64,000 nt of DNA from Clostridiales bacterium (GTDB taxonomy: Bacteria; Bacillota; Clostridia; Lachnospirales; Lachnospiraceae). The stretch is taken from assembly GCA_021204085.1 (NCBI GenBank), contig JAJPZY010000135.1:4851-68850 (forward strand). The letters run 5' to 3'. The notes beneath the pieces are model-generated. The model ran no database searches. It saw only the letters and a list, made by a program, of their open reading frames with translations, and was not told the origin of the DNA. Position numbers and translations under genes: made by a program. Below, in pieces: positions 15,101 to 30,134 of the stretch (its first letter is position 1; every line of letters begins with the position of its first letter).

Positions 15101-15300
15101 CTCAGTACACGGCGGAGGAGCTGACAAAGAAAGCGCACAACTTTGAGTTGGAAAAGTCCGGACATACTATTTTCTGCATCGACTATCGTCAGAGCGGAAT
15201 CGGCTCCGGAAGCTGCGGCCCTCAGCTGGCAGATAAATATCGGCTGAACGACACGCATTACAGCTTCGGGTTCCATATCCGCCCGGAGGAGCTTGCGTAG
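12151..15300 (+). CDS. lacZ: GH2 beta-galactosidase (LacZ/EbgA type)
   Basis: GTNRHD, WSMGNESG (acid/base Glu), CEYIHAMGN (nucleophile Glu) and GGFVWEWCD; 1049 aa. Confidence 0.9.
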   Translation: MIIPKYYEDIHTLNVNSEPIRAYYIPTSPAQEQTWKSRRQTDRFFLLNGDWKFLYFDSIYDCLEVFYEEGYRTDEFDSIPVPSNWQDHAYGLHQYTNTRYPFPFDPPYVPHENPCGAYVRNFTYHKAEGTATYHLNFEGVDSCYYVWVNGEFIGYHQVSHSTGEFDITEQLREGENTLAVLVLQWCDGSYLEDQDKFRSSGIFRDVYILARPKNYVSDYFTTTVLKDDYKNADVKIALTFAGEEIPVSYRLMTPCGCTVAEGTSAGAEISFSVSDVTLWNAEAPYLYTLFLATEDEVIRDRIGFREIKIVDSVVYLNGKKVRFRGTNRHDSDPYVGSAVTLESIRYDMSLMKQHNFNAIRSSHYPNMPEFYELCDEYGFYVIDETDLEVHGVVDLYNVNIYREKGEHPFPPFICDNPEWKEAILDRVQKCVLRDKNRPSVLVWSMGNESGYGCTFENALAWTKSYDKTRLTHYEGSLHRPRNPIGGKNDYSNIDLRSRMYASIPEMHAYLQNNPDKPFVQCEYIHAMGNGPGDIEDYYELEEMYDSYVGGFVWEWCDHGIYMGKTNSRHKKFYYGGDFGEYPHDGNFCMDGLVYPDRTLSVGIKEYKNVHRPVRVKLIDAAAGTYILQNNLDFTNLKDALYLTWAVWCDGDKISAGEIRDTGLLDVAPRSKKEVVLPIEVPQMEGKSYVMITSHKLTADCFREEGFELGFDQLFLNDAPTKKLTNLLATESTAQKAVTYSQDERYVYIEGEDFSYTFNLLTGVIGRIVYKNHSFMDEPMELNIWRAPTDNDRVVKKLWYEAGYDCMQTRTYSNTFETLADGSLKITTVSAMAPVYRQKFLDFVIDWVIKPDGTINVHLEVERDAVMRGTYAPYFNMPEKRLDMHGIEDCFEVHEAYLPRLGIRMHLPKNMCKVEYYGYGPYESYIDKRRASWFGKFDAHVAAMHEDYIRPQENGSHYGCEYVTVADRTHRLSVYNETPFSFNLSQYTAEELTKKAHNFELEKSGHTIFCIDYRQSGIGSGSCGPQLADKYRLNDTHYSFGFHIRPEELA

Positions 15301-15305
15301 GAAGC

Positions 15306-15517
15306 TTTTTTGTATCATAGGAAAGACCTTGCTTTTGTAAATTGGTAAAGTGCGTGATTTCCTATGATATAAAAACACTCTGTGAGGATGCGCAGCAGCT
15401 GTGCACGCTTGTTCACTAAGCTCACGATGTTCGCTAAGTGAGCCAATGCGTCGCGGATAGGAAGTTTTTGCTGCGCAACCGCTCGCGCGCGAAGTGTCGC
15501 AGGGCGACACTTTATTT
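15306..15517 (+). repeat. Palindromic intergenic repeat family A, copy 1
   Basis: Core 15371-15512 is 141/142 identical to the reverse complement of the 36.3-36.5 kb copy. Hairpins: tatcataggaaa/tttcctatgata and aagtgtcgc-agg-gcgacactt. Confidence 0.93.
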
Positions 15518-15604
15518 AAAAACATTGAATGACGGATGAGGAAGCTGTCGGTATCATATTTTAAGGCAACCGGGGCAACGCTTCGACGAACTAATCGCTA
15601 ACTG

Positions 15605-15668
15605 CGACTACGGAACTGTCACGATTTTTCTGTGTAGACAGACATGGTATTGGCGTGACAGTTCCTAT
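15605..15668 (+). repeat. Variant REP-like hairpin unit related to family B
   Basis: gactac-GGAACTGTCACG...CGTGACAGTTCC-ta, a 12-bp stem (15612-15623/15654-15665) in the same gactacGGAA...TTCCta frame as family B. Confidence 0.6.
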
Positions 15669-15804
15669 AGACACTCAGAATAGTTTTCGCGTCTAAAGTC
15701 TTAGTATACGACTTTGCTAAGCTCAATGTTCGCCGATGGCTCCATTTCGCTAAGTGCCGCATGTATAACATGAAAGCAGCCAATCAGCGTTCGTCAGTGA
15801 CAGC

Positions 15805-15912
15805 TTTGCATAAGTTCGACTACGGAAATCAGAGATTTCCTACGTTGTATAAGTTCGATCACGCAAATTTGAAATTTGCTATCTCACTTATGTCTCACTT
15901 ATCCGTTTCTTG
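15805..15912 (+). repeat. REP-like repeat family B, copy 1
   Basis: 15815-15905 is identical over 91 bp to the reverse complement of 18550-18640. It holds two tandem units, each TAAGTTCGAYYACG plus a hairpin. Confidence 0.93.
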
Positions 15913-16090
15913 GGCTTTCATGGTAACCGCTGGATTTTGTCTCAGCTAAAAGCGCCCCTATAAAGTTGCCTGAAAATAGGATACCGGCAACTTCCCATCC
16001 TGTGCCGATGGTTATGATAAACAATAAGAATAGTGCTTTGTTAAATCAATGGTTTCTTTTGTTTGAAAAAATACGTTTGGAAAATTTAAG

Positions 16091-16120
16091 TTGACAGGTT
16101 ACGTGAATACACATTATACT
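16091..16120 (+). promoter_or_regulatory. sigmaA-type promoter upstream of the hydF/nif-like/hyp cluster
   Basis: TTGACA-18 bp-TATACT. Confidence 0.7.
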
Positions 16121-16223
16121 TTGAGTAGTTAAGACATTTGCGAGAATCATTCATCTGACCATAAGGTACGGCCTGAAAGGAAAGACAAGTGATTGCAGCG
16201 ACAGGAAAGAGTTATTTATGCTG

Positions 16224-16257
16224 CCCTTGTACCCATTTTCAGGTACAAGGGTTTTTT
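16224..16257 (+). terminator. Intrinsic terminator inside the 5' leader of the hydF cluster (probable attenuator)
   Basis: cccttgtacc-cattttca-ggtacaaggg followed by TTTTTT, about 100 nt after the promoter and 300 nt before hydF. Confidence 0.8.
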
Positions 16258-16562
16258 GTAGTATATATACTTTGAATGTGGGTGGTGTGAGTGAGGAATA
16301 CAAACATGGAGACATTAAAAAGGCAGGGGATAGAATTGTTAATGTTGAGAATAATTTCTGGTTAATCGTCAGATTTTTATAAGCCGAGATTAACTAATGG
16401 ATGAACAACGAAAAAGGCAAAATGTGCCTCCCTGATCCTTGGGGATGACCTGAAAAATAAAGAAAAGTTTCCCAAAACGGGTTGCCGAAGGCAGGAACGA
16501 CCCGAGAAATGAAGAAAATTCGAAGAGAAGTAGTACAGCGCGGATAAAAGGAGGAATGAAAG

Positions 16563-17762
16563 ATGAGCCTGAACAGTACGCCTTCCGCGAACCGGATCCA
16601 CATCGGTTTTTTCGGAAGAAGAAATGCAGGAAAATCAAGTATCGTTAATGCAGTGACCGGGCAGGATCTGGCTGTGGTATCCGAGATCAGAGGGACGACC
16701 ACGGATCCGGTTTACAAGTCGATGGAACTCCTGCCCATGGGACCGGTGGTGATCATTGATACCCCGGGTTTTGACGATGAGGGAAGCCTCGGTGATCTAC
16801 GTGTAAAAAAGACCCGCCAGGTTTTAAATAAGACGGATGTAGCGGTGCTGATTGTTGACGCCTCGGAGGGAAAGCAGCCCTGCGATGAGGAATTGATCGC
16901 TTTGTTTCAGGAGAAGGAGATTCCCTATGTTGTGGCTTATAACAAGTCAGACCTTGTCACAGAGCAGCGAGAACTTTCTGAAAATGAGATCTCCGTTAGC
17001 GCGCTTTATAAGCAGGGAATTTATGAACTGAAGGAAATGATCGGGCGCTCTGTGGTGATGGAGGATGAACGGCTGAAAATTGTCGGAGATCTGATTCAGC
17101 CGGACGATTTTGTGGTACTGGTGGTGCCGATTGACTCGGCGGCTCCGAAAGGGCGGCTGATTCTTCCGCAGCAGCAGACCATCCGGGACGTCTTGGAGGC
17201 GGACGCCACGGCTCTTGTTGTGAAAGAGAACGGTCTGGCTGAGACTCTGAAAAACATGGGACAAAAGCCGGCGATGGTGATCACGGACAGTCAGGCTTTT
17301 GAGCAGGTGGCGACTACGGTGCCGGAGGATATTCTTCTGACCTCTTTCTCTATTCTGATGGCGAGATATAAAGGCTTTCTGGATGCGGCGGTAGAAGGCG
17401 TCCGGGCGCTGGACACACTGGAGGATGGCGATACGGTGCTGATTTCCGAGGGATGCACGCATCACAGGCAGTGCGACGATATCGGTACGGTGAAGCTTCC
17501 ACGTTGGATCAGGCAGTATACGGGCAAAGATATTCGCTTTGCGACGAGCTCCGGTACGGGGTTTCCGGATGATTTGTCCGGATATAAGATGGTGATTCAT
17601 TGCGGCGGGTGCATGCTCAATGAGCGGGAAGTAAAATACCGCATGAAATGTTCTCTGGATCAGGGCGTGCCGTTTACCAATTACGGGGTGACGATCGCGT
17701 ATCTGAAGGGAATATTGAAGCGGAGCGTGCAGGTGTTTCCTTATTTATATGAGAGATTATGA
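16563..17762 (+). CDS. hydF: [FeFe]-hydrogenase H-cluster maturation GTPase HydF
   Basis: [13 protein letters not shown] and NKSD GTPase motifs; GRLILPQ; Fe-S motif EGCTHH...HCGGCM; TNYG. Confidence 0.93.
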
Positions 17763-18505
17763 AGAAAATAGCAGTTTACGGAAAAGGCGGAATCGGAAAA
17801 TCTACGATTGTATCGAATATGGCGGCTGCACTGGCGCAGCAGGGATATCGTGTCATGCAGATCGGCTGTGACCCGAAAGCAGATTCTACAATTGCCCTGC
17901 GTCACGGGACGCCGCTTCCCACAGTGTTGGATACGTTTCGTCAGAAAAAAGATACTTTTACGTCGGAGGATATTGTAAGAATCGGATTTGCAGGCGTTGT
18001 CTGTATCGAAGCAGGCGGACCGGTACCCGGTGTTGGCTGCGCGGGACGGGGAATTATCACGGCGCTGGAGAAGGTTGAAGCGAAGGGAATTTATGATATT
18101 TATCAGCCGGATATCGTTTTCTACGATGTTCTGGGTGATGTGGTCTGCGGCGGATTTTCCATGCCGATGCGCAGCGGTTATGCGGACGAAGTCTATATCG
18201 TTTCCTCCGGTGAGAATATGTCCATTTATGCTGCGGCAAATATTGCGGCGGCGATCCGGAATTTTAAGGGGCGCGGCTATGCGAAGCTCGGCGGCGTGAT
18301 CTTAAACCGACGGAATGTAAAGCGGGAGAAGGAAAAGGTCGAGGAGCTTTGCCGGGATTTTGAGACCGGGATTGTCGGTGACATTGCGTTCTCGGAGCTG
18401 GTACAGGAGGCAGAGGAGCGGAAAGTAACTTTGCTGGAAGCATATCCGGAGAGTGACATCTCACTACAATTTCAACGTCTGGCCAGAACAATTGCGGATG
18501 CGTGA
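17759..18505 (+). CDS. Nitrogenase iron protein (NifH/BchL/CfbC family)-like ATPase 1
   Basis: [19 protein letters not shown], and cluster Cys in GCAGRG and DVVCGGF. At 248 aa it is shorter than canonical NifH. ATGA overlap with hydF. Confidence 0.92.
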
Positions 18506-18541
18506 AGGGAGCAAGCCTATATTTTTACTTATTTTGAGAAT

Positions 18542-18650
18542 CCAAGCAGCGGATAAGTGAGACATAAGTGAGATAGCAAATTTCAAATTTGCGTGATCGA
18601 ACTTATACAACGTAGGAAATCTCTGATTTCCGTAGTCGAATTTATGTAAA
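18542..18650 (-). repeat. REP-like repeat family B, copy 2 (inverted relative to copy 1)
   Basis: 91-bp identity to the reverse complement of 15815-15905. Confidence 0.93.
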
Positions 18651-18850
18651 ACTTCCACAGGTGAACGTCGAGCTTAGCAGAGTTGTTTCGTGTTTATATC
18701 GTTTGATATGAGAATGAAAACCCGAATCTGCGGTTTGGAAAAATCGGTGAACATGTATGGATATGAAATGTCTGAATGAAAGGATATGTCAGACTGACAT
18801 GTGAAGTAAATAAAGTAAAATATGGAAGTGTATAATAAGGCAGATATTGA

Positions 18851-20188
18851 ATGTTGCAGCGTTTAGAACATGATCAAAAGATAAATAATTTGAATACTGA
18901 AAATGTCTGTGTCCCGATTTCCGACGCGCACTTTCCTGCGCCGTTTCACGCGGGGCTGGAATACAGTTCTCCGGCGCGCGGCACCTGGAATATCGTCCAC
19001 ACGGGGATAATGATTCCGGAGTCGCACCAGATCTTTGTCTGTGCGCTGGGCTGCCTGCGGGGCGTGGTTCTGACAGCGGCGGAGATGAACGCGCTGGGCC
19101 GTTATTCTTCGATTCAGATTCGGGAGGAGAATGTTCTGGACGGCGGGATGGAAGATCTGATGATTGAGGGCGTCACGGACATCATTCAAAAGCTGGATGT
19201 CCGGCCGAAAGCGATTTTGCTTTTTATCAGCTGTCAGCATTTTTTCCTGGCGTATGATCAGAAAATTGTCTTTTCCGTCCTCCGCGAGCGCTTTCCGGAT
19301 ATTTATTTTACTGACTGTTACATGATTCCGACGCTTCGCAAGAGCGGCCTGACACCGGATCAGAAGATGCGGATTCAGATGTACAGCATGTTGGAACAAC
19401 GCCCGAAAAACAGAAAAAAGGTGAATCTGATCGGCAGCAATCTGGAGACGGCACATACTTCAGAACTGCGGCGGATGGTGGAAAACGCCGGGTATGAATT
19501 CTGGGATTTATACCGATGTCAGGACTTTAAGGACTACTTATCTATGGCAGAGGCGTCCTTAAACCTTGTCTATGAGCCGATCGCGTTGATGGCGGCGGAG
19601 GATTTGAAAAAGCGGCTGGGGCAGGAGTATCTTTATCTCACTTTCACCTATGATTTTGAAGAATTAGAGGAAAATTATCGGAAGCTGGCGGATGCGCTCG
19701 GGATTGAGAAGCCTGATTTTTCAACAGAGAAACACCGGGCGGAATTTGCGATTGCTCATGCAAAAGAGCTGATTGGGGACATGCCCATCGCGGTTGATTA
19801 TACGTTTACTTTCCGTATCTTAAGTTTTGCAAGGATGCTTTTAGAACAGGGCTTTCATATAACTGAGATTTACGCGGATTCGTTTTTGCCGGAGGATGAA
19901 GAAAATTTCAGGTGGATACAGGAGCAGTATCCTGATGTTCTGATCTCGGCTACGAATCAGCCGGTGATGCGGTTCGTGCATGGGGAGCATAGAATCCTCG
20001 CGATCGGCCAGAAAGCGGCATATTTTTCAGGAACGGATCATTTTGTAAATGTGGCGGAGAGCGGCGGCTTTTACGGATACGACGGGATTGTTCAGATTAT
20101 GAATCTGATGGAGGATGCGTTTTTCCGTAAAAAAGACAGAAAAACCATCATCCAGCGGAAAGGGTACGGGTGCGAGAGCTGCTTATGA
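18851..20188 (+). CDS. Nitrogenase component-1-like oxidoreductase, alpha-type subunit of pair 1
   Basis: Follows the nifH-like gene; VCALGC and FISC Cys sites; C-terminal GFYGYDG similar to NifD/NifE; terminal CESC. Confidence 0.8.
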   Translation: MLQRLEHDQKINNLNTENVCVPISDAHFPAPFHAGLEYSSPARGTWNIVHTGIMIPESHQIFVCALGCLRGVVLTAAEMNALGRYSSIQIREENVLDGGMEDLMIEGVTDIIQKLDVRPKAILLFISCQHFFLAYDQKIVFSVLRERFPDIYFTDCYMIPTLRKSGLTPDQKMRIQMYSMLEQRPKNRKKVNLIGSNLETAHTSELRRMVENAGYEFWDLYRCQDFKDYLSMAEASLNLVYEPIALMAAEDLKKRLGQEYLYLTFTYDFEELEENYRKLADALGIEKPDFSTEKHRAEFAIAHAKELIGDMPIAVDYTFTFRILSFARMLLEQGFHITEIYADSFLPEDEENFRWIQEQYPDVLISATNQPVMRFVHGEHRILAIGQKAAYFSGTDHFVNVAESGGFYGYDGIVQIMNLMEDAFFRKKDRKTIIQRKGYGCESCL

Positions 20189-21633
20189 GACAGGTGACGG
20201 GACTGACTTCTACATATTCATCGGATGAATTCGGCATCTGTTCCGCACTTTATGAGCTGGGCGGAATGGTCGTCATGCATGACGCTTCCGGATGTAATTC
20301 GACCTACACGACGCATGACGAACCGCGGTGGTATGACATGGACAGCATGATTTTCATTTCCGCAATCTCAGAGATGGAAGCCATCATGGGCGACGATGAC
20401 AAGTTTATCGAAGATCTGGTGGAGACGGCCGAAGAGCTGCAGCCGAAGTTTATCGCTCTTGTAGGGGCGCCGATTCCCTATATGATCGGTACGGATTTGG
20501 AGGCGATCGCGGCGATTGTCAGCGAGCGGGTGCAGATTCCCTGCTTTGCGTTTGCGGCGAATGGGATGCACGATTATACGCGCGGCGTGTCCATGGCGCT
20601 GGAGCGGATTGTAAGGGAATACGCTACTGAAGCTGTTTATTCAGGAAGACAGAAAGGTTCATTGGAGACAGAGAACCATGCCGGAAAGCTTGACAGAACG
20701 GAAACAAACATATATCCGGGAAAGAGTGAAACGGGAACGCCGGTATTCCGGGATGAACAGCAGCGGGTGCAGAGTTCTCCTGCATCGAACCGAGAGGATG
20801 TCCGGAAACAGTGTATGGCAGCTCCGATAACCGTCAACATCCTTGGCGCGACGCCCCTGGATTTTTCTTTAAACGGCAGTGTCGATTCCATACAAAAGTG
20901 GATTTCCAACCAGAAAATGCGAATGGGCTCCTGCCTTTCCATAGGATGTACGCTGGATAATATTCGGGAAATGGGAAATGCCGATGTCAATCTTGTGATC
21001 TCAGCCGGAGGTCTTGCAGCTGCAGAAATTTTGCGGGAGCGCTTCGGAACGCCTTATGTAGTGGGAGTTCCGTTTGGCGAGAAATTTTCGGAATATCTGG
21101 CGGAGATTGTACGGGAAGCGGCGAGTTCACAGAAAAACCGTATTTCCTATATGTTAAAAATATCGTGTAAAAACAGAGCAATGTCGCAATCCGATAAAAA
21201 AGCAGAAATATATTCTTGTGATGTCGGTGGAAATAAAACGCAGTTAAAACCTGCAGATGCAATCGGGAACAGCAATGTGTCTTCGAATTCTGATGTGGCA
21301 GGGGAGAGCGGGAAACGCATGCGTTGCGTTATCATCGGCGAGAGTGTATTTTCCGCATCTTTGGCCGCCGCGATTGAGATGGAGCGCAGGGTAAATGTGA
21401 AAGTACTTTGCCCACTGGAAAATGGAGCTGATTTGCTTCGTCCGGGTGATCTTGCCACGCCGGAGGAAGATGATCTGATTCGGGAGATAAAATCAGCAGA
21501 CGCGGTCATTGCGGATCCTCTGTATCAATCACTGGCTCGAGCGAAGCAGTTTTATCCGCTGCCTCATGAGGCATTTTCCGGGAGAATCTATGACAGTGTG
21601 AATCCGAATCTCATTGCGGTTCCGCTAAAGTGA
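20185..21633 (+). CDS. Nitrogenase component-1-like oxidoreductase, beta-type subunit of pair 1
   Basis: SDEFG, HDASGC, DEPRW, VNILGATPLD and IADPLY; ATGA overlap with the upstream gene; paralog of 23859-25016. Confidence 0.8.
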   Translation: MRQVTGLTSTYSSDEFGICSALYELGGMVVMHDASGCNSTYTTHDEPRWYDMDSMIFISAISEMEAIMGDDDKFIEDLVETAEELQPKFIALVGAPIPYMIGTDLEAIAAIVSERVQIPCFAFAANGMHDYTRGVSMALERIVREYATEAVYSGRQKGSLETENHAGKLDRTETNIYPGKSETGTPVFRDEQQRVQSSPASNREDVRKQCMAAPITVNILGATPLDFSLNGSVDSIQKWISNQKMRMGSCLSIGCTLDNIREMGNADVNLVISAGGLAAAEILRERFGTPYVVGVPFGEKFSEYLAEIVREAASSQKNRISYMLKISCKNRAMSQSDKKAEIYSCDVGGNKTQLKPADAIGNSNVSSNSDVAGESGKRMRCVIIGESVFSASLAAAIEMERRVNVKVLCPLENGADLLRPGDLATPEEDDLIREIKSADAVIADPLYQSLARAKQFYPLPHEAFSGRIYDSVNPNLIAVPLK

Positions 21634-21788
21634 GGGGCGTCATATTTAGTGATTTGAGATAAAGCCTTGCTGGGATGGGAAATAACCCACCAAAACAGAA
21701 GAATTGTGAAAATAGTGGGCAGCCGGGACAAAAAGCACCCCACCTAACCAGCAGAATTGTAATGTAGAGGGAAAGGAAATATAAATTT

Positions 21789-22547
21789 ATGTTAAAGCTT
21801 GCAATATATGGAAAAGGCGGGATCGGAAAGTCTACGACTACCGCGAATCTGGCAGCGGCCTTTGCCCTGCTTGGGAAAAAGGTCATTCAGATCGGCTGTG
21901 ATCCGAAAGCGGATTCGACCATCAATCTGCTGGGCGGGCATCCGATGCTGCCGGTGATGAATTATATCCGTGATCACGATGAGGAGCCGGAGCAGCTGGC
22001 GGAGATCGCGAAAGAGGGTTACGGCGGAGTCCTTTGCATTGAGACCGGAGGTCCGACACCGGGGTTGGGCTGTGCCGGCCGCGGCATTATTACGACATTC
22101 AGCCTGCTTGAAGATCTGGAACTTTTTGAGACCTATCAGCCGGATGTGGTTCTCTATGATGTGCTGGGAGATGTGGTCTGCGGAGGATTTGCCGCTCCGA
22201 TTCGCGAGGGTTACGCGGAGCATATACTGATCGTGACGTCCGGGGAAAAAATGGCGCTCTATGCAGCCAATAATATTCAGACGGCAGTTAAAAATTTTGA
22301 GGACAGAGGGTATGCCTCGGTAAAAGGGATTATTCTGAACCGGAGAAATGTGGAAAACGAATATGAAAAGGTATCCGCTTTTGCCGTAGAACATGGGTTG
22401 GACATCATTGCGGATATTCCCAGGAGCGCAGATATCATTCGCTATGAGGACATGGGAATGACGGTAATTGAGGGCGACCCGGATCTTCCAATCAGCCGGA
22501 TTTATCTGGAACTGGCGAAAAAACTGCTTTCGGAAGACCTTATATAA
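21789..22547 (+). CDS. Nitrogenase iron protein (NifH family)-like ATPase 2
   Basis: [25 protein letters not shown] and DVVCGGF; 252 aa. Confidence 0.92.
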
Positions 22548-22566
22548 ATATAAAAGGAATAAAAAC

Positions 22567-23850
22567 ATGCAGCAGAATGCGTACTATATTACAGCGGCAG
22601 AGTTGGCCGCAAAAGGAAAAGAAAATATTCCGGATGAACTGCAGTCTTCAAAACACCTGATCTACAGTTCGCCGGCTACACTGGCATTTCATTCGCCCGG
22701 AGCGCAGGGATTCGGTGTGAAACGAGCGGGTCTGGCTATCCCCGGTTCCGTGATGCTTCTGGTCTCCCCGGCCTGCTGCGGGAGAAATACGATGATGCTG
22801 GATCAGATTGGCGGATACGGGGATCGTTTTTTCTATCTGCTTCAGGATGACACGGATATCGTGACCGGACGCCATCTGAACCGGATTTCAAAGGCGGTGA
22901 AAGAAGTTGCGGATTCTCTGGATGAGAAACCCACAGCGGTGATGATCTGTATCACCTGCGTGGATGCGCTGCTGGGCACGGATATGGAGCGGGTCTGCCG
23001 GAAAGCGTCGGAGTACGCGGGCGTTCCGGTTTTGCCCTGTTATATGTATGCGCTGACCCGGGAGGGGCGTGTGCCGCCGATGACATCTGTGAGAAAGACG
23101 GTATATGCGCTTCTTGAAAAACGGGAGAGGAAAAAAACAGCGGTAAATCTTCTGGGCGAATTTGCTCCCTATGACGACGGCTGTGAGATTTATGAGATTT
23201 TAAATAATCTGGGGTTAAAGACGATTCGTGAAATTTCCCGGTGCCGGGACTTTGAAGAATACCTTTCCATGTCGGAGGCGAATTTTAATATTATTCTGAA
23301 CCCGGAGAGCCGCCTGGCTGCAGAGGATTTCCACAAGCGGTTGGGAATCCCCTCGCTTGAAATGACGCGGGTGTACCAGATTGACAAGATTCAAAAACAG
23401 TATGAACTTCTTGGAACCGCCCTCGGTGTAAAAATCGATGACTCCGCATACTATGAGGAAGCTATGCGGACGGTGGAAGAGTTTTCACAGGCTCATCCGC
23501 AGACTGTATTTGCCGTGGGAGAGTGGATGAACGGAGACCCCTTTGAACTGTCTCTGGCATTGCTACGATACGGACATCAGGTTGCGGAGATATACGGCAC
23601 AGTGACGAACCTGAACTTTATCTACATAAAAAAAATTGCTGCGCTCAGCCCGGAAACCAGAATATATACGAATCTCTCGCCGACTATGATGAACTACAAC
23701 TGCGGGGAAGGCGCGCCTGATATTACCATCGGGCAGGATGCCGCCTACTATCATCCCGATTGCCCGAACGTGCCCTGGAATGCGGAGAATAAACCGTTTG
23801 GATACGCGGGTCTACGGAATTTGGTTCATAGTATTTGTAGTATAATATAG
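22567..23850 (+). CDS. Nitrogenase component-1-like oxidoreductase, alpha-type subunit of pair 2
   Basis: SPACCGR, CITCVDALLGTD, VNLLG and PFGYAG; start moved to the ATG after the AAGGA RBS. Confidence 0.8.
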   Translation: MQQNAYYITAAELAAKGKENIPDELQSSKHLIYSSPATLAFHSPGAQGFGVKRAGLAIPGSVMLLVSPACCGRNTMMLDQIGGYGDRFFYLLQDDTDIVTGRHLNRISKAVKEVADSLDEKPTAVMICITCVDALLGTDMERVCRKASEYAGVPVLPCYMYALTREGRVPPMTSVRKTVYALLEKRERKKTAVNLLGEFAPYDDGCEIYEILNNLGLKTIREISRCRDFEEYLSMSEANFNIILNPESRLAAEDFHKRLGIPSLEMTRVYQIDKIQKQYELLGTALGVKIDDSAYYEEAMRTVEEFSQAHPQTVFAVGEWMNGDPFELSLALLRYGHQVAEIYGTVTNLNFIYIKKIAALSPETRIYTNLSPTMMNYNCGEGAPDITIGQDAAYYHPDCPNVPWNAENKPFGYAGLRNLVHSICSII

Positions 23851-23858
23851 GAGAAATT

Positions 23859-25016
23859 ATGAAAGGCCTTTTAAAATATCTGTCCCCCTTTGCCCCGGAT
23901 CAGTCGGGCGCAGTTTCCGTTTTATATGATCTGGGCGGCATGATCGTCATCTGCGACGCCGGCGGCTGCACCGGTAATTTCTGCGGATTTGACGAGCCGC
24001 GGTGGTTTGAAAAAAAGAGCGCGATTTTTTCCGCGGGCCTGCGGGATATGGACGCCATTCTGGGAAGGGATGACCGTCTGGTAGAAAAGCTGAAGGACGC
24101 GGCTGATCATCTGGATGCGAAATTTATTGCGCTTATCGGCACGCCGGTTCCGGCTGTAATTGCGACGGATTTTAAAGCATTGAAGCGAATGACAGAGAAG
24201 AAAACCGGATTGCCGGTGATTGTCAGCGAGTGCACCGGAACCCGCCTCTATGACAAAGGTGCGGAGGATGCGTACCTGTCACTTTTTCAGACTTTTGCAA
24301 AGCGGGATGTCAGAAAAAATGAACAGACTGTCGGTGTCATTGGAGTGAATCCGCTGGACACCAGTTATTCGGATGCAGCGCAGATTTTGGAGAGCGTGTT
24401 TCTGGACGAAGGATATGAGAATATCCTCTGTTACGGCGCAGAACATAAGCTTGAAAGCAGTGAAACGAATTTCAGCATGAAGAAGTCGGGAAATTGTATG
24501 CAGTTCAGCGATTCTTCGCCTGACGGGAAGAAACCTGCGGATAGCCTTGCAGTGATCGAACAGGCAGGAACCGCCGCAAAAAACATTGTTCTTGCACCAT
24601 CCGGAATCCGGGCGGCAAAATATCTGCAGGAAACTTTCGGCACTCCCTATGAAACGGCATATCCGCTGTTATCTGTAAAATTAAAAGAACGGCTGCACGG
24701 GCTCGCGGGAAAACGTGTGCTTGTCGTCCATCAACAGGTTGCGGCGAATGAGATTCGAAAAGAAATTGCAGGCGATGATGACCTGAATTTTTCAAAGATT
24801 GTCTGCGGCACATGGTTTATGCAGGTTCCGGAGCAGACCGCACAGCAGGATGTGCATTTTGAAAGGGAAGAAACATTTATTTCATACGTGGAACAAGGAA
24901 ATTTTGATGCGATTGTCGCGGACGGAAGGTTTCGCAGGGCGCTGCGCGGTTACAGGGGTGAGTTTGTGGAGTGCCCGCATTTTGCGGTTTCCGGGACGAT
25001 GGATTGTGAGTTATAG
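23859..25016 (+). CDS. Nitrogenase component-1-like oxidoreductase, beta-type subunit of pair 2
   Basis: PDQSG, CDAGGCTGNFC, DEPRW, GTPVPAVIATD and PHFAVSG. Confidence 0.8.
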   Translation: MKGLLKYLSPFAPDQSGAVSVLYDLGGMIVICDAGGCTGNFCGFDEPRWFEKKSAIFSAGLRDMDAILGRDDRLVEKLKDAADHLDAKFIALIGTPVPAVIATDFKALKRMTEKKTGLPVIVSECTGTRLYDKGAEDAYLSLFQTFAKRDVRKNEQTVGVIGVNPLDTSYSDAAQILESVFLDEGYENILCYGAEHKLESSETNFSMKKSGNCMQFSDSSPDGKKPADSLAVIEQAGTAAKNIVLAPSGIRAAKYLQETFGTPYETAYPLLSVKLKERLHGLAGKRVLVVHQQVAANEIRKEIAGDDDLNFSKIVCGTWFMQVPEQTAQQDVHFEREETFISYVEQGNFDAIVADGRFRRALRGYRGEFVECPHFAVSGTMDCEL

Positions 25017-25019
25017 AAG

Positions 25020-25178
25020 TTTTTTTTATATCATAGGAAAGACCTTGTTGTTGTAAAGTATTAAAGTATGCGATTTCCTATGATATAAAAACACTCCGTG
25101 AGGATGCGCAGCTCGCGGATAGGAGGTTTTGCTGCGCAACCGCTCGCGCGCGAAGTGTCGCAGAGCGACACTTTATTT
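25020..25178 (+). repeat. Palindromic repeat family A, copy 2 (lacks a 54-bp internal module)
   Basis: Same left hairpin, aaaaacactc..gaggatgcgcagc core and aagtgtcgc hairpin as copy 1; lacks the equivalent of 15397-15450. Confidence 0.9.
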
Positions 25179-25212
25179 TATGAGTAAGCCGAGATTGTAT
25201 AGGGACAGCAGT

Positions 25213-27690
25213 ATGAATACAGGAGAGAATCAGAAAAATAATTGCATAACGAAGCATATTCGTGTCTATGGTATCGTTCAGGGCGTTGGTTTTCGCCCGT
25301 TTGTGAGCCGGATTGCGGATCGGATCGGTGTGAGAGGGAGCGTAGCGAACAAAGGCTCCTATGTGGAAATATTTTCTGCCGGCACAGGAGAGCAGCAGGA
25401 GGAATTTTTACAGGCGTTGGAGCGGGAAGCTCCGGAGCGCTCTGCCATTTTAAAGGTGGATGTTTCTGATATTGAGAATCTTGCTTTTGATACCTTTGAT
25501 ATCATAGAGAGTGAGCGGGAAGAGGGAGATATCTTTGTCTCGCCGGATATCGCTACCTGTCCGAAATGCAGGCAGGAACTTTATGATCCGACGAACCGCC
25601 GGTATATGCACCCTTTTATTAATTGTACGGCCTGCGGGCCGCGGCTGACGATCTTGGACGCCATGCCCTATGACCGTGAACGGACCAGTATGAAGGACTT
25701 CCCCATGTGTCTGGAGTGTGAGTTTGAGTACACGCACGCGGAGACCAGGCGCTACGACGCCCAGCCTGTCTGTTGTAATGATTGCGGGCCGCAGGTGTAC
25801 CTGCTGGAACGAACTTCTCAGGCAGAGGAAAAAAATGTATGTTGCGGGAGGGAAGCCATCAGCAAGGCGCGAAAAGCAATCGCGGACGGAAAGATCGTAG
25901 CCATTAAAGGCATCGGCGGCTTTCATCTTTGCTGCGACGCCGCCAATGAATCAGCAGTGCGCCGCCTGCGGGAATTAAAGCATCGCCCCGCAAAGCCGTT
26001 TGCGGTGATGATGAAGGATTTGGAGACCGTATATGCGCAGTGTGAAGTGTCAGAAGTACAGAAGGAGATCCTGGACGGTCACGCGAAGCCGATCATTCTT
26101 TTAAAAAAGAAAGTTGGAAACCATCTGGCGGACGCGGTGGCGCCGGATAATCCGAATGTCGGAGTGATGCTGCCGTACGCCCCGGTACAAATGCTGTTGT
26201 TTGACTACAATGATGGTTTCGAGATGCCCACAGATACCTTTGTTATGACCAGCGGCAATGTGTCAGGCGCGCCGATTTGCCGGACAGATGAGGATGCGCT
26301 GCGGGAAATCAGCGGCTTCTGTGATCTGATTTTATCCCACGACCGAAAAATTCGCCTGCGTGCCGATGATTCGGTGATGAATTTTTATAAAGACGAGCCG
26401 TATATGATCCGGCGCTCCAGAGGATACGCGCCGCTCCCGGTCATGATGGATTTCCCGTGGCGCGGGCAGGTGCTGGCCGTCGGCGGCGAATTGAAGAATA
26501 CATTCTGCATCGCCAAAAATCAGCTGTTTTATTCCTCTCCCTATGTGGGGGATATGGCGGATGTCCGTACCGTTCAGGCGCTGACGGAATCGATTACGCG
26601 GATGGAGGAACTGCTGGAGGCAAAGCCGCAGCTGGCAGTCTGTGACCTGCATCCGAAATATAATACAACGGTTGTTGCCGAGAATACAGGACTCCCGTTG
26701 TTGAAAATCCAGCATCACTACGCGCACATTCTTTCCTGTATGGCGGAAAACAATCTGCCGCCTGATACAAAAGTGATCGGAGTTTCCTTTGACGGTACCG
26801 GCTATGGCACCGACGGAACGATCTGGGGCGGGGAATTTCTTGTGGCGGATTACTTCGGTTTTGAGCGGGCCGGCAGCATTCGGCCGTTTCTCCAGATCGG
26901 CGGCGATTCTTCCGCACGTGAGGGTTGGAGGATTGCGGTTTCTATGGTAAATTCGTTGTATCCGGACCGCGCAGCTGAGGTTGCGGAAGCGCTCGGTTTG
27001 TGCGATGAAAAGACACGGAAGCTCTATCAGCAGATGGCAGCGCGGCGAATCAATGCCGTGGAGTCGACCAGCGCAGGCCGCCTGTTCGATGCAGTCAGTG
27101 CAATCCTCGGCATCCGATTGGAATCCTCTTTTGAGGGAGAAGCGTCAACTACGCTGCAGTTCAGGGCGGAGGAGTATCTTGAGAGGAGAGGAAAGGTAAA
27201 AGAGGACATATGTGTTGCAGACGAATGTGACACGGAGAATTGTACCGGGAAGGAAGAAGTAGTTTTAAAAGAAGAAAAAGAATCTGGAAATGTCAGAAAC
27301 ACCTGCGGACTTCAACTAACAGGAGTAGCAGAAAGCACTTCGGACCGCCGGCTTCTTCTTCCAACTGATGAACTGGTGCGGTTTATCATTAATGAGAGAC
27401 TGGCCGGGCAGGATGCCTGCAAACTGGCGTATATTTTCCATCAGACTCTCGCGGAACAGATTATCGCCGGATGCAGAGTGATTTCGGAGGAGACCGGTAT
27501 TACATTCTGCGCCTTAAGCGGCGGCGTGTTTCAGAACCAGCTTTTGCTGGAACTTTGTGAAAAGGGCTTGACTGAAGCCGGATTTACCGTTTATCGTCAC
27601 CGCATGATACCGCCGAATGACGGCGGGCTGGCACTCGGCCAGGCGGCGGCCGGCATGGCATACCTGAATAATACGCTACAAGAAATATAA
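25213..27690 (+). CDS. hypF: Carbamoyltransferase HypF
   Basis: Acylphosphatase domain GIVQGVGFRPF, two CxxC-x18-CxxC zinc fingers, HHYAH, DGTGYGTDG and PPNDGG. The longer N-terminus in the ORF track comes from repeat A. Confidence 0.96.
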   Translation: MNTGENQKNNCITKHIRVYGIVQGVGFRPFVSRIADRIGVRGSVANKGSYVEIFSAGTGEQQEEFLQALEREAPERSAILKVDVSDIENLAFDTFDIIESEREEGDIFVSPDIATCPKCRQELYDPTNRRYMHPFINCTACGPRLTILDAMPYDRERTSMKDFPMCLECEFEYTHAETRRYDAQPVCCNDCGPQVYLLERTSQAEEKNVCCGREAISKARKAIADGKIVAIKGIGGFHLCCDAANESAVRRLRELKHRPAKPFAVMMKDLETVYAQCEVSEVQKEILDGHAKPIILLKKKVGNHLADAVAPDNPNVGVMLPYAPVQMLLFDYNDGFEMPTDTFVMTSGNVSGAPICRTDEDALREISGFCDLILSHDRKIRLRADDSVMNFYKDEPYMIRRSRGYAPLPVMMDFPWRGQVLAVGGELKNTFCIAKNQLFYSSPYVGDMADVRTVQALTESITRMEELLEAKPQLAVCDLHPKYNTTVVAENTGLPLLKIQHHYAHILSCMAENNLPPDTKVIGVSFDGTGYGTDGTIWGGEFLVADYFGFERAGSIRPFLQIGGDSSAREGWRIAVSMVNSLYPDRAAEVAEALGLCDEKTRKLYQQMAARRINAVESTSAGRLFDAVSAILGIRLESSFEGEASTTLQFRAEEYLERRGKVKEDICVADECDTENCTGKEEVVLKEEKESGNVRNTCGLQLTGVAESTSDRRLLLPTDELVRFIINERLAGQDACKLAYIFHQTLAEQIIAGCRVISEETGITFCALSGGVFQNQLLLELCEKGLTEAGFTVYRHRMIPPNDGGLALGQAAAGMAYLNNTLQEI

Positions 27691-27709
27691 AGCAGAGGAG
27701 GATATATAC

Positions 27710-27916
27710 ATGTGTGTAGGATTATCAGCAAAAGTAGTAGGAATTAAAGACGGCATGGCTTTGGTGGACGCGATGGGTGCGAAGCGTGAGGTTTCCGCAG
27801 AACTTTTGGATGAGCTGGAGCCGGGAGATTATGTCATGGTACATGCGGGTGTCGCGATCGCGAAGATCAATGGCGATGATGATGCCGAGGCAGATGACGT
27901 CATCGGTTTGCTGTAA
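27710..27916 (+). CDS. hypC: HypC/HupF chaperone
   Basis: Cys2 in MCVGLSAKV and GDYVMVHAGVA; 68 aa. Confidence 0.93.
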   Translation: MCVGLSAKVVGIKDGMALVDAMGAKREVSAELLDELEPGDYVMVHAGVAIAKINGDDDAEADDVIGLL

Positions 27917-27931
27917 AGAAGGAGAATTAAA

Positions 27932-28978
27932 ATGGACGACGCAATCAAAAAAGCGCGTGGGATTATTGAAAATTATGACGGGCCGAAGCTTCGGATCATG
28001 GAAGTCTGCGGCACGCATACACATGAAATTTTCCGTCTTGGAATACGGAATATCCTGCCGGATAATATTGAACTGATTTCCGGGCCGGGATGTCCGGTCT
28101 GCGTGACGCCGGTCGGTTATATCGACGAGGCGGTGATGCTGGCTTTGGAAAAAGGCTGCACAGTCTGTACATTCGGAGATCTGATCCGTGTGCCGGGAAC
28201 GAAGATGAGTCTGGCGGGAGCCCGCGCGGAAGGCGCGGATGTTAAGATCGTATATGCGCCGCAGGATGCGGTAACTGTTGCAAAAGAAAATCCGGACAAA
28301 CAGGTGGTGTTTCTGGCAGTAGGTTTTGAGACGACTACGCCGTCCGCCTGTCTTGCCGTAAAAAAAGCAAGGGAGCAGGGACTTGATAATTTTTCAATCC
28401 TGACAGCGAACAAGACCATGCCGAATGCGTATCAGGCGCTGAAAGGAAGTGCGGATGCATTCCTTTATCCGGGGCATGTCAATGCCATTACGGGCGAGGC
28501 AGACTGCCGGAAGCTGAAGGATGAGGGGGTTTCCGGAGTGATTGCCGGATTTACGGCAAAAGAGCTTTTGACGGCGCTGGCAGTTATTATAGAGAAATCA
28601 AAAACAGGAGAGCCGTTTTTTGTAAACTGTTATCCCAGAGTGGTCCGTCCTGAGGGAAATTCTGCCGGGAGGGCAATCATTGAGGAAGTGATGGAGCCCT
28701 GTGATTCTGAATGGCGGGGCTTAGGTGTGATTCCTGATTCGGGGCTTAAACTGCGGGAAGATTATCGTGAATTTGATGCGCGGTTAAAGTATAATCTTCC
28801 GGAAATCCACGGGAAGCCGAACCCGGCCTGCCGCTGCGGGGAGGTGCTTCAGGGGAAATGCCGCCCGGTGGATTGCAGTCTTTTCGGAAAAGTGTGTACG
28901 CCGCAGCATCCGGTGGGCGCATGTATGGTTTCCAATGAGGGAAGCTGCTCCGCATATTTTTCTTACGGAATCGGATGA
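27932..28978 (+). CDS. hypD: Hydrogenase maturation Fe-S scaffold HypD
   Basis: MEVCGTHT, GPGCPVC, GFETT, PGHV and the C-terminal Cys cluster ending GACMVSNEGSC. Confidence 0.96.
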   Translation: MDDAIKKARGIIENYDGPKLRIMEVCGTHTHEIFRLGIRNILPDNIELISGPGCPVCVTPVGYIDEAVMLALEKGCTVCTFGDLIRVPGTKMSLAGARAEGADVKIVYAPQDAVTVAKENPDKQVVFLAVGFETTTPSACLAVKKAREQGLDNFSILTANKTMPNAYQALKGSADAFLYPGHVNAITGEADCRKLKDEGVSGVIAGFTAKELLTALAVIIEKSKTGEPFFVNCYPRVVRPEGNSAGRAIIEEVMEPCDSEWRGLGVIPDSGLKLREDYREFDARLKYNLPEIHGKPNPACRCGEVLQGKCRPVDCSLFGKVCTPQHPVGACMVSNEGSCSAYFSYGIG

Positions 28979-29123
28979 TTGGATTATATTGAAGATACAA
29001 TTAAATGGATGAGTCAGGCCTGTTTTTTCGAAAATATGACTGCAGGTTTATATTTACGGATGGAGGACTTTCTATTGATAGATTTGGTAATCGGCAAATA
29101 GATGAATCGGGAAGGAAGAAAAA

Positions 29124-30134
29124 ATGAGTGATAGTAAAAAAGTAACCCTCGCCCACGGCGCGGGAGGAAAGCAGACGGCGGAATTGATCCGGGAGGTGTT
29201 CGCGGCGCATTTTTCAAATCCGCAATTTACGGCGGATGACGCGGCGGTGCTGGATGTGGGAAGTGGAAAAATTGCCATGTCTACAGACGGATTTATCGTG
29301 TCTCCCTATAAATTTAACGGAGGAAATATCGGAAAACTTTCCATTTGCGGGACAGTAAATGATTTGTCCTGCATGGGGGCGCGGCCGCTGTATCTGACCT
29401 GCTCCTTTATCATAGAGGAAGGATTTCCGCTTGATGAGCTGGAGCAGATCGCGGCATCCATGGAAAAAACAGCAATGGAGGCCGGTGTAAAGATCGTAGC
29501 CGGAGATACAAAAGTAGCCGGAGCCGGACAGGTGGATCATATTTTTATTACAACGACCGGAATCGGCGCATTGACGGAAGGTGTTTCAACCTCCGGAGCT
29601 TATGCGAGACCGGGGGATGCAATCCTTGTGACAGGCGATATCGGCCGGCACGGCTGCACCATTTTGCTTGCAAGAGAAGATCTGGGAATTGAAGCGGATA
29701 TTAAAAGCGATTGTGCCCCGCTCTGGGGAACCGTAGAGTTGATGATTGATGAAACAAAGGATATTCATGTGATTCGCGACGCAACGAGGGGCGGTGTGGG
29801 GACGGTTCTCTACGAAATTGCGGCGGAGAGCAATGTCGGCGTTCGGCTCGATGGCGCGGCAATCCCGGTTGATCCGGCAGTTCGCGGTGTCTGCGGAATG
29901 CTGGGACTTGATCCGCTCTATCTCGCGAATGAAGGAACCCTGGTCGTGATCGCACCCAGACCGGAGGCAGAGCGGTTGCTCACGGTTTTAAAGGATGGAA
30001 AATATTCGGCAAATGCTGCGATCATCGGTGAGATTACCGACAAGCTGCCGGGAAAAGTGGTTATGACTACGGAGATCGGGGCTGAAACTATGCTGCCGCA
30101 GCCGGGCGGGGAACTGTTGCCGAGGATATGTTAA
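29124..30134 (+). CDS. hypE: Carbamoyl dehydratase HypE
   Basis: LAHGAGGK, GTVNDL, DATRGG and the C-terminal PRIC. Confidence 0.96.
   Translation: MSDSKKVTLAHGAGGKQTAELIREVFAAHFSNPQFTADDAAVLDVGSGKIAMSTDGFIVSPYKFNGGNIGKLSICGTVNDLSCMGARPLYLTCSFIIEEGFPLDELEQIAASMEKTAMEAGVKIVAGDTKVAGAGQVDHIFITTTGIGALTEGVSTSGAYARPGDAILVTGDIGRHGCTILLAREDLGIEADIKSDCAPLWGTVELMIDETKDIHVIRDATRGGVGTVLYEIAAESNVGVRLDGAAIPVDPAVRGVCGMLGLDPLYLANEGTLVVIAPRPEAERLLTVLKDGKYSANAAIIGEITDKLPGKVVMTTEIGAETMLPQPGGELLPRIC

Follow-up and report, generated by a model that had tools for sequence, protein, structure and literature searches.

The 64,000-nucleotide stretch of DNA analysed here (the window) carries, upstream of hydF, a local copy of a conserved cis-acting leader, which belongs to a family that has no entry in Rfam 15 and for which no descriptive paper was found. 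In the reading that we prefer, to which a probability of about 0.45 is given, this leader is bound by a TM1266-like protein. The leader shares its strand with the gene that follows it, a gene for maturation of the H-cluster; this gene is hydF in the window and a TM1266-like gene, hydG or aspartase elsewhere in the family. Since its relatives precede TM1266-like, hydE/G/F and aspartase genes, the leader points to [FeFe]-hydrogenase H-cluster maturation. It probably switches the nitrogenase-like/Hyp cluster that follows it and ties this cluster to hydrogenase maturation. What is new is that the leader stands before a hydF/nitrogenase-like/hypFCDE operon where HydG was not found in the genome. 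An earlier note on this DNA had expected the identity of the leader to inform the function of the cluster; this expectation is borne out for H-cluster maturation, through the genes of the relatives, and falls away for sulfur or nitrogen status in general.

The shared leader is independent regulatory evidence that places an uncharacterised nitrogenase-like cluster in [FeFe]-hydrogenase maturation. The 47-nt RNA also gives a direct handle on the control of HydE, HydF and HydG production and on the mechanism of the TM1266-like 'regulator'.

Architecture of the leader and the downstream operon

All of the features described in this section are on the forward strand. A sigma-70-type promoter occupies 16091-16120, with the -35 element at 16091-16096, an 18-nt spacer and the -10 element at 16115-16120. 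The sequence TTGACA/TATACT agrees with the consensus at 11 of 12 positions and is the top-scoring site within 15300-17000, in agreement with the near-consensus promoter claimed in the earlier note; transcription would start near 16127. The promoter of the relatives is placed equally far 5' of the hairpin that follows. This 47-nt sensor hairpin (16147-16193) was delineated from covariance-model matches, alignments A1-A4 and pair counts. From base to tip it consists of a closing helix (16147-16151 with 16188-16192), an invariant CU (16155-16156) opposite AG (16183-16184), a first 2x2 purine loop (GA at 16157-16158 opposite AA at 16181-16182), an inner helix of four positions (16159-16162 with 16177-16180), a second purine loop (16163-16164 opposite 16174-16176) and a variable tip hairpin (16165-16173).

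A linker helix spanning 16195-16224 (16195-16199 with 16220-16224), which was identified from folds and the full-leader alignment, sets the sensor beside the terminator; its length varies in the relatives, some of which have an extra hairpin inserted. The intrinsic terminator (16223-16257) is composed of a 5' arm (16223-16233), an 8-nt loop (16234-16241) and a 3' arm (16242-16252), forming a hairpin of 11 pairs, six of them G-C, and ends in a T6 tract that runs to 16257. It is conserved in the full-leader alignment, and the strong terminator that had been read from the window alone is thereby upheld. A spacer of 305 nt (16258-16562; 38.7% G+C), close to the 300 nt first estimated, leads to hydF and has a Shine-Dalgarno sequence (16547-16554) at its end. 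The fold of the leader at 16120-16265 has a z score of -2.6 relative to shuffles. Further upstream, an 8-bp hairpin is present at 15964-15995, inside the 790-nt gap between a GH2 beta-galactosidase gene and the promoter.

The operon presumed to be under the control of the leader (16563-30134) was annotated with Pfam and NCBIfam and has the gene order hydF, NifH-like, two NifD/K-like, NifH-like, two NifD/K-like, hypF, (hypC), hypD and hypE. Its first gene starts at 16563, and the product matches the HydF equivalog at 570 bits (NCBIfam cut-off 325.55). HydG was not found in four genomes in which the leader precedes the nitrogenase-like operon, the source genome included, although this absence is provisional because the genomes are MAGs. 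HydG is present above the NCBIfam cut-off in two genomes in which the leader precedes hydG operons. The HydF proteins of five genomes (G203, G206, G210, G212 and G220; loci L028-L032) match in two pieces, with roughly 20-55 extra residues inserted in frame near residue 138, all in a single open frame.

Conservation within the genus

Relatives of HydF with 60-89% identity were found in 23 of the 24 sampled genomes of the genus. The segment 16147-16257 is the sole conserved part of the DNA upstream of hydF and is repeated in the loci of 12 relatives, each time 3' of a promoter. The hairpin covariance model finds exactly one copy in the source genome and a single copy per genome in 17 of 31 genomes of the genus, located before hydF or, in one genome, directly before a NifH-like gene. 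The combination of hairpin and terminator is more than chance and is kept before hydF in relatives. The distance from the end of the terminator to hydF is 14-132 nt in the 12 relatives, compared with 304 nt in the window.

Members of the genus that lack the leader have another conserved region upstream of hydF (L019, L021-L025 and L030-L032), which hints that this operon is also controlled in another, unrelated way. This region contains an A-rich promoter-like stretch with a conserved block 5' of it.

Structure of the wider family

The leader had been described as unrecognised from its letters, and a scan with Rfam 15 agrees with that description: there is no match at gathering score across the whole window or in 20 related loci, matches at E <= 10 in 15900-16700 are at chance level and nothing is returned at E <= 1 in eight related leaders. 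A literature search likewise found no paper that describes control of hydE/F/G or TM1266 by a riboswitch or attenuator.

The family plan begins with CU, a 2x2 loop (GA opposite GA or AA) and a 4-bp helix that opens with a C-G pair, and continues with another purine loop, a tip that varies and an AG that closes the base; a terminator comes next. The part that the family shares is the 4-bp helix, which covaries and has a purine-rich 2x2 internal loop on either side. The window leader has this core plan and aligns column for column in alignment A3. Its hairpin scores 74.5 bits with covariance model R1, 65.7 bits with R2 and 46.9 bits with R3, the last of which derives from an alignment with the window leader in it. 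Model R2, which was built from window-type leaders only and serves as an independent check on family membership, picks up three typical leaders at the expected place before TM1266-like genes.

The comparison of homologous upstream regions for covariation, which had been suggested in the earlier note, recovered a conserved hairpin. In alignment A3 (29 sequences) pairing is 88.8% and covariation is 0.385, against 0.185 ± 0.018 in shuffles. For 44 model-aligned members the covariation is 0.470, against 0.194 ± 0.017 in shuffles (0/500), in an alignment that was fitted to the model and so somewhat favours the structure; slid-alignment controls of the same 44 members give 0.01-0.13. The second pair of the inner helix (columns 14-97) illustrates the exchange of bases, being CG in 20 members, GC in 13, AU in nine and UA in one, with no unpaired case. 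The longer closing helix that was assigned to all members in a first model is valid only in the genus of the window. Many leaders contain a tandem pair of modules, the upstream one with just one conserved loop. A second leader type, with CUGA and GA words around a short G-C hairpin, lies upstream of the TM1266-like genes of L190, L195, L200 and L204; its terminator resembles that of the window genus, and it may be a permuted variant of the leader.

Association with H-cluster maturation genes

TM1266-like genes were found in 244 of the 399 sampled Clostridia genomes. About half of the 30 most similar genes have a leader of the same plan upstream, and a further 40 upstream regions gave 14 matches at E < 0.5, all on the strand of the gene. 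A scan that was unbiased with respect to location was run over 150 Clostridia genomes with a threshold of 28 bits or more. It returned 19 matches, every one of them at H-cluster maturation genes: 11 directly before a TM1266-like gene, five before a verified HydG gene, two in the hydE-hydG position and one before an aspartate ammonia-lyase. Matches below this threshold resemble noise, one of them being within a transporter gene. When five complete or nearly complete genomes and the source genome were scanned in full, no leader copies turned up elsewhere, and the relatives of G250 gave no additional copies.

Individual loci show the range of operons involved. The window-type leaders L094 and L174 precede a canonical TM1266-like/hydE/hydG/hydF operon; in the Proteiniclasticum genome the TM1266-like, HydE, HydG and HydF proteins encoded after the leader are all above their NCBIfam cut-offs. 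Three MAGs from Lachnospirales/Clostridia have the leader before a TM1266-like gene that is followed by NifH-like and NifD-like genes, and one MAG has it before hydG. Copies of the module are adjacent to hydG at L183 (2776-2821), L205 (403-448, reverse strand), L185 (2868-2913), L201 (2824-2872), L299, L301 and L305. One complete genome has a leader copy and terminator (L307, G457:C1:3720526-3720572) before an aspartate ammonia-lyase gene about 3 Mb from the TM1266-like gene, and the regulon therefore includes an ammonia-lyase. A 2024 paper implicates ammonia-lyases in making the dithiomethylamine bridge (PMC11736057).

A proposed terminator/antiterminator switch

Across the family there is a lineage-specific complementarity between the 3' strand of the sensor and the terminator of the same leader, in its 5' arm and loop. 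The cognate duplexes have a mean energy of -11.7 kcal/mol, compared with -9.6 ± 0.39 kcal/mol for permuted partners (0/5000), a test that is somewhat inflated by relatedness. In typical members the antiterminator and terminator folds are within 0-4 kcal/mol of each other. The candidate antiterminator segment of the window is 16185-16189 (forward strand), which is able to pair with 16226-16230. Given the complementarity between the 3' strand of the sensor and the 5' arm of the terminator, a closed hairpin should give termination and turn the operon off, and we infer the direction of the switch (a hairpin held shut means off) on this basis. The attenuator leader envisaged in the earlier note, either a riboswitch or a protein-binding leader, is in keeping with an element that is conserved and structured and in which, to judge by its predicted pairing, sensor and terminator compete by way of an antiterminator.

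The proposed mechanism is as follows. The leader would be transcribed first and would fold into a small rod-like hairpin with CU opposite AG at its base, the 3' strand of which would have two alternatives, closure of the hairpin or pairing with the terminator's 5' arm. A bound factor would keep the hairpin shut, so that the terminator would form and transcription would end at 16257. With the hairpin free, the antiterminator would form and the polymerase would continue into hydF, the two nitrogenase-like sets and hypFCDE. The factor may be a small TM1266-like ACT-fold protein with its own ligand, encoded on another contig and acting in the manner of PyrR or TRAP.

The same sensor is found on two expression platforms, the terminator and the ribosome-binding site before hydG. 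Copies in the hydE-hydG spacer lie directly before the hydG start codon, with their 3' strand abutting the ribosome-binding site, and the hydG-proximal module fits a translational version of the switch with the same off logic.

This arrangement resembles the pyr operon of Bacillus subtilis, in which PyrR bound to a leader hairpin blocks the antiterminator and the terminator forms, as would happen here. Both systems have more than one site in an operon, located in the leader as well as between cistrons, and in most relatives the gene that comes first after the leader encodes the presumed regulator, whereas in the window the candidate is encoded elsewhere. The leader does not resemble the PyrR site in sequence or by Rfam; PyrR has a phosphoribosyltransferase fold, in contrast to the ACT/NikR-C-like fold of the candidate TM1266-like protein, a putative RNA binder. 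The proposed system would also be like the TRAP regulon, in which a small ligand-binding protein controls termination in a leader and translation initiation elsewhere in the pathway, although TRAP reads single-stranded triplet repeats and the leader described here is a base-paired rod with purine loops and a covarying helix.

Identity of the binder

We favour a protein binder, the TM1266-like protein, over direct sensing by the RNA. The protein (PF21699) has roughly 80 residues, is the usual product of the first gene after the leader and is related to PDB entry 2NZC and weakly to the C-terminal domain of NikR; it has no match to any Pfam DNA-binding domain. Its gene is present in 30 of the 31 genomes of the genus and in G247-G251. 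The small size of the element, its tandem modules, the copy at hydG and the TM1266-like first gene together favour a protein, as in the PyrR and TRAP regulons. Several observations count against this choice. The median pI of 65 TM1266-like sequences is 6.7, that is, the protein is not basic, and genome G417, which is 97% complete, has a good leader before hydG and no TM1266-like match even at E <= 0.1. The TM1266-like gene also has no such leader of its own in the genus of the window, which takes autoregulation out of consideration there. In the source genome this gene (L161 1492-1761, contig C28) is followed, within L161 1492-3012, by an aldo/keto-reductase gene with a 4Fe-4S dicluster domain rather than by hydE or hydG, and no leader module is nearby.

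The co-occurrence of leader and TM1266-like gene is expected whether the sensor is a protein or the RNA itself, because both belong to one pathway. The neutral pI, the leaderless TM1266-like gene of the genus and G417 therefore leave a direct riboswitch as a serious rival, which we regard as a tentative second reading. The hairpin itself would then be a new riboswitch class for a small molecule or metal linked to the H-cluster (Fe2+, the product of HydG or HypE, or a by-product, for example) that turns genes off through a terminator or a ribosome site. The strict conservation of the loop nucleotides, the covarying helices and the use of one sensor on two platforms are all consistent with this, as are the G417 leader in a genome where the TM1266-like gene was undetected and the position of the leader away from the TM1266-like gene in the window genus, G251, G414, G343 and G462. 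Tandem G-A loops are known metal-binding sites. In size, in having conserved internal loops between covarying helices and, if the direction of the switch is as proposed, in being an off-switch with a terminator or ribosome site, the leader is comparable to the xanthine/NMT1, THF-II and guanidine-II riboswitches; unlike them, it has no Rfam match, several copies per operon and only putative ligand binding. Against a riboswitch, there are only about 14 conserved nucleotides in a simple rod in which no junction or pseudoknot was detected, the upstream module of many leaders has a single conserved loop, several sites occur per operon, and it would make little physiological sense to shut the genes off in response to iron or another substrate of the pathway.

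A more specific version of the riboswitch reading, which we consider unlikely, is that the hairpin senses an organometallic H-cluster intermediate, a by-product or a metal, and that the operon makes a CO/CN-bearing iron species independently of HydG. If true, the place of such a riboswitch before a nitrogenase-like/HypFCDE operon would be a sign that the operon supplies the same iron species with CO and CN by a route without HydG.

It is improbable that the purine loops are bound by some other trans-acting factor, such as an L7Ae-type protein that recognises K-turns or G-A loops, HydF or another maturase. There is a likeness to box C/D or K-turn cores with tandem sheared G-A pairs (CUGA opposite RA-AG beside a C-G pair) in the CUGA and GA words and the C-G pair next to them, and no result here singles out the TM1266-like protein among the proteins of the regulon; the loops are, however, symmetric 2x2 loops, and binding by a general RNA chaperone would leave the confinement to a single regulon unexplained. 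A K-turn as such is not supported, since the 3-nt bulge is absent and column 103, the key A, is G in 20 of 44 members. A hammerhead-like reading of the CUGA and GAA words was also discarded: the element is not a three-way junction and matches no Rfam hammerhead model.

The window copy and its long spacer

The window copy has a weak antiterminator, which counts against the preferred reading. Its duplex comprises five pairs plus two (-5.9 kcal/mol) and is stronger in relatives. When the antiterminator is forced to form, the fold is 10 kcal/mol less stable than the minimum, and the terminator fold has an advantage of 10-14 kcal/mol. The 305-nt spacer is found only in the source genome. It is not a repeat, having no copy elsewhere in the genome, and it is not a decayed TM1266-like gene, as it contains no gene remnant. 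The spacer could hide a second promoter for hydF, with weak promoter-like sites at 16307-16336, and this too counts against the preferred reading.

These features might be taken to mean that the window leader is a decaying remnant, with transcripts that end at 16257 and hydF driven from within the spacer, an explanation that we find improbable: the confinement of the spacer to the source genome, the two G-to-A changes that weaken the antiterminator and the sites at 16307-16336 speak for it, but the sensor core is intact and scores on a par with relatives (46.9 bits), the spacer sites agree with the consensus at just nine of 12 positions compared with 11 of 12 for the main promoter, and strong terminators, favoured by 13-19 kcal/mol, occur in the other members of the genus that were examined.

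Pattern scans and weaker matches

A strict sequence pattern was run over one genome per GTDB species and over JGI metagenomes. It recovered the copies of the genus and a few diverged ones, the remainder being chance matches in coding DNA. The pattern undercounts the family because positions that were taken as invariant vary, two of them differing in the Proteiniclasticum relative L174. When one genome from each genus of the host family was searched by BLASTN with a 481-nt region, there was no match, as the leader element is too short and diverged for this method, and model R2 gave noise-level matches only over 150 genomes of the host family.

Two of these weak matches, in other genera of Lachnospiraceae, have a similar core and may be distant relatives or chance. 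One (L163 1501-1575) lies right after a promoter and before a gene with a PPDK_N domain; the other (L166 1501-1556, reverse strand) follows a promoter and precedes a gene of the F420-0:gamma-glutamyl-ligase family. Contigs from Erysipelotrichaceae/Allobaculum (L064, L077 and L141) have in common a conserved stretch that matches the pattern through its purine words and is otherwise unlike the leader. Contigs from sediment metagenomes (L109, L134, L144 and L157) share a stretch that fits the pattern and runs up to the start codon of a conserved open reading frame, and this stretch may be coding or a separate element.
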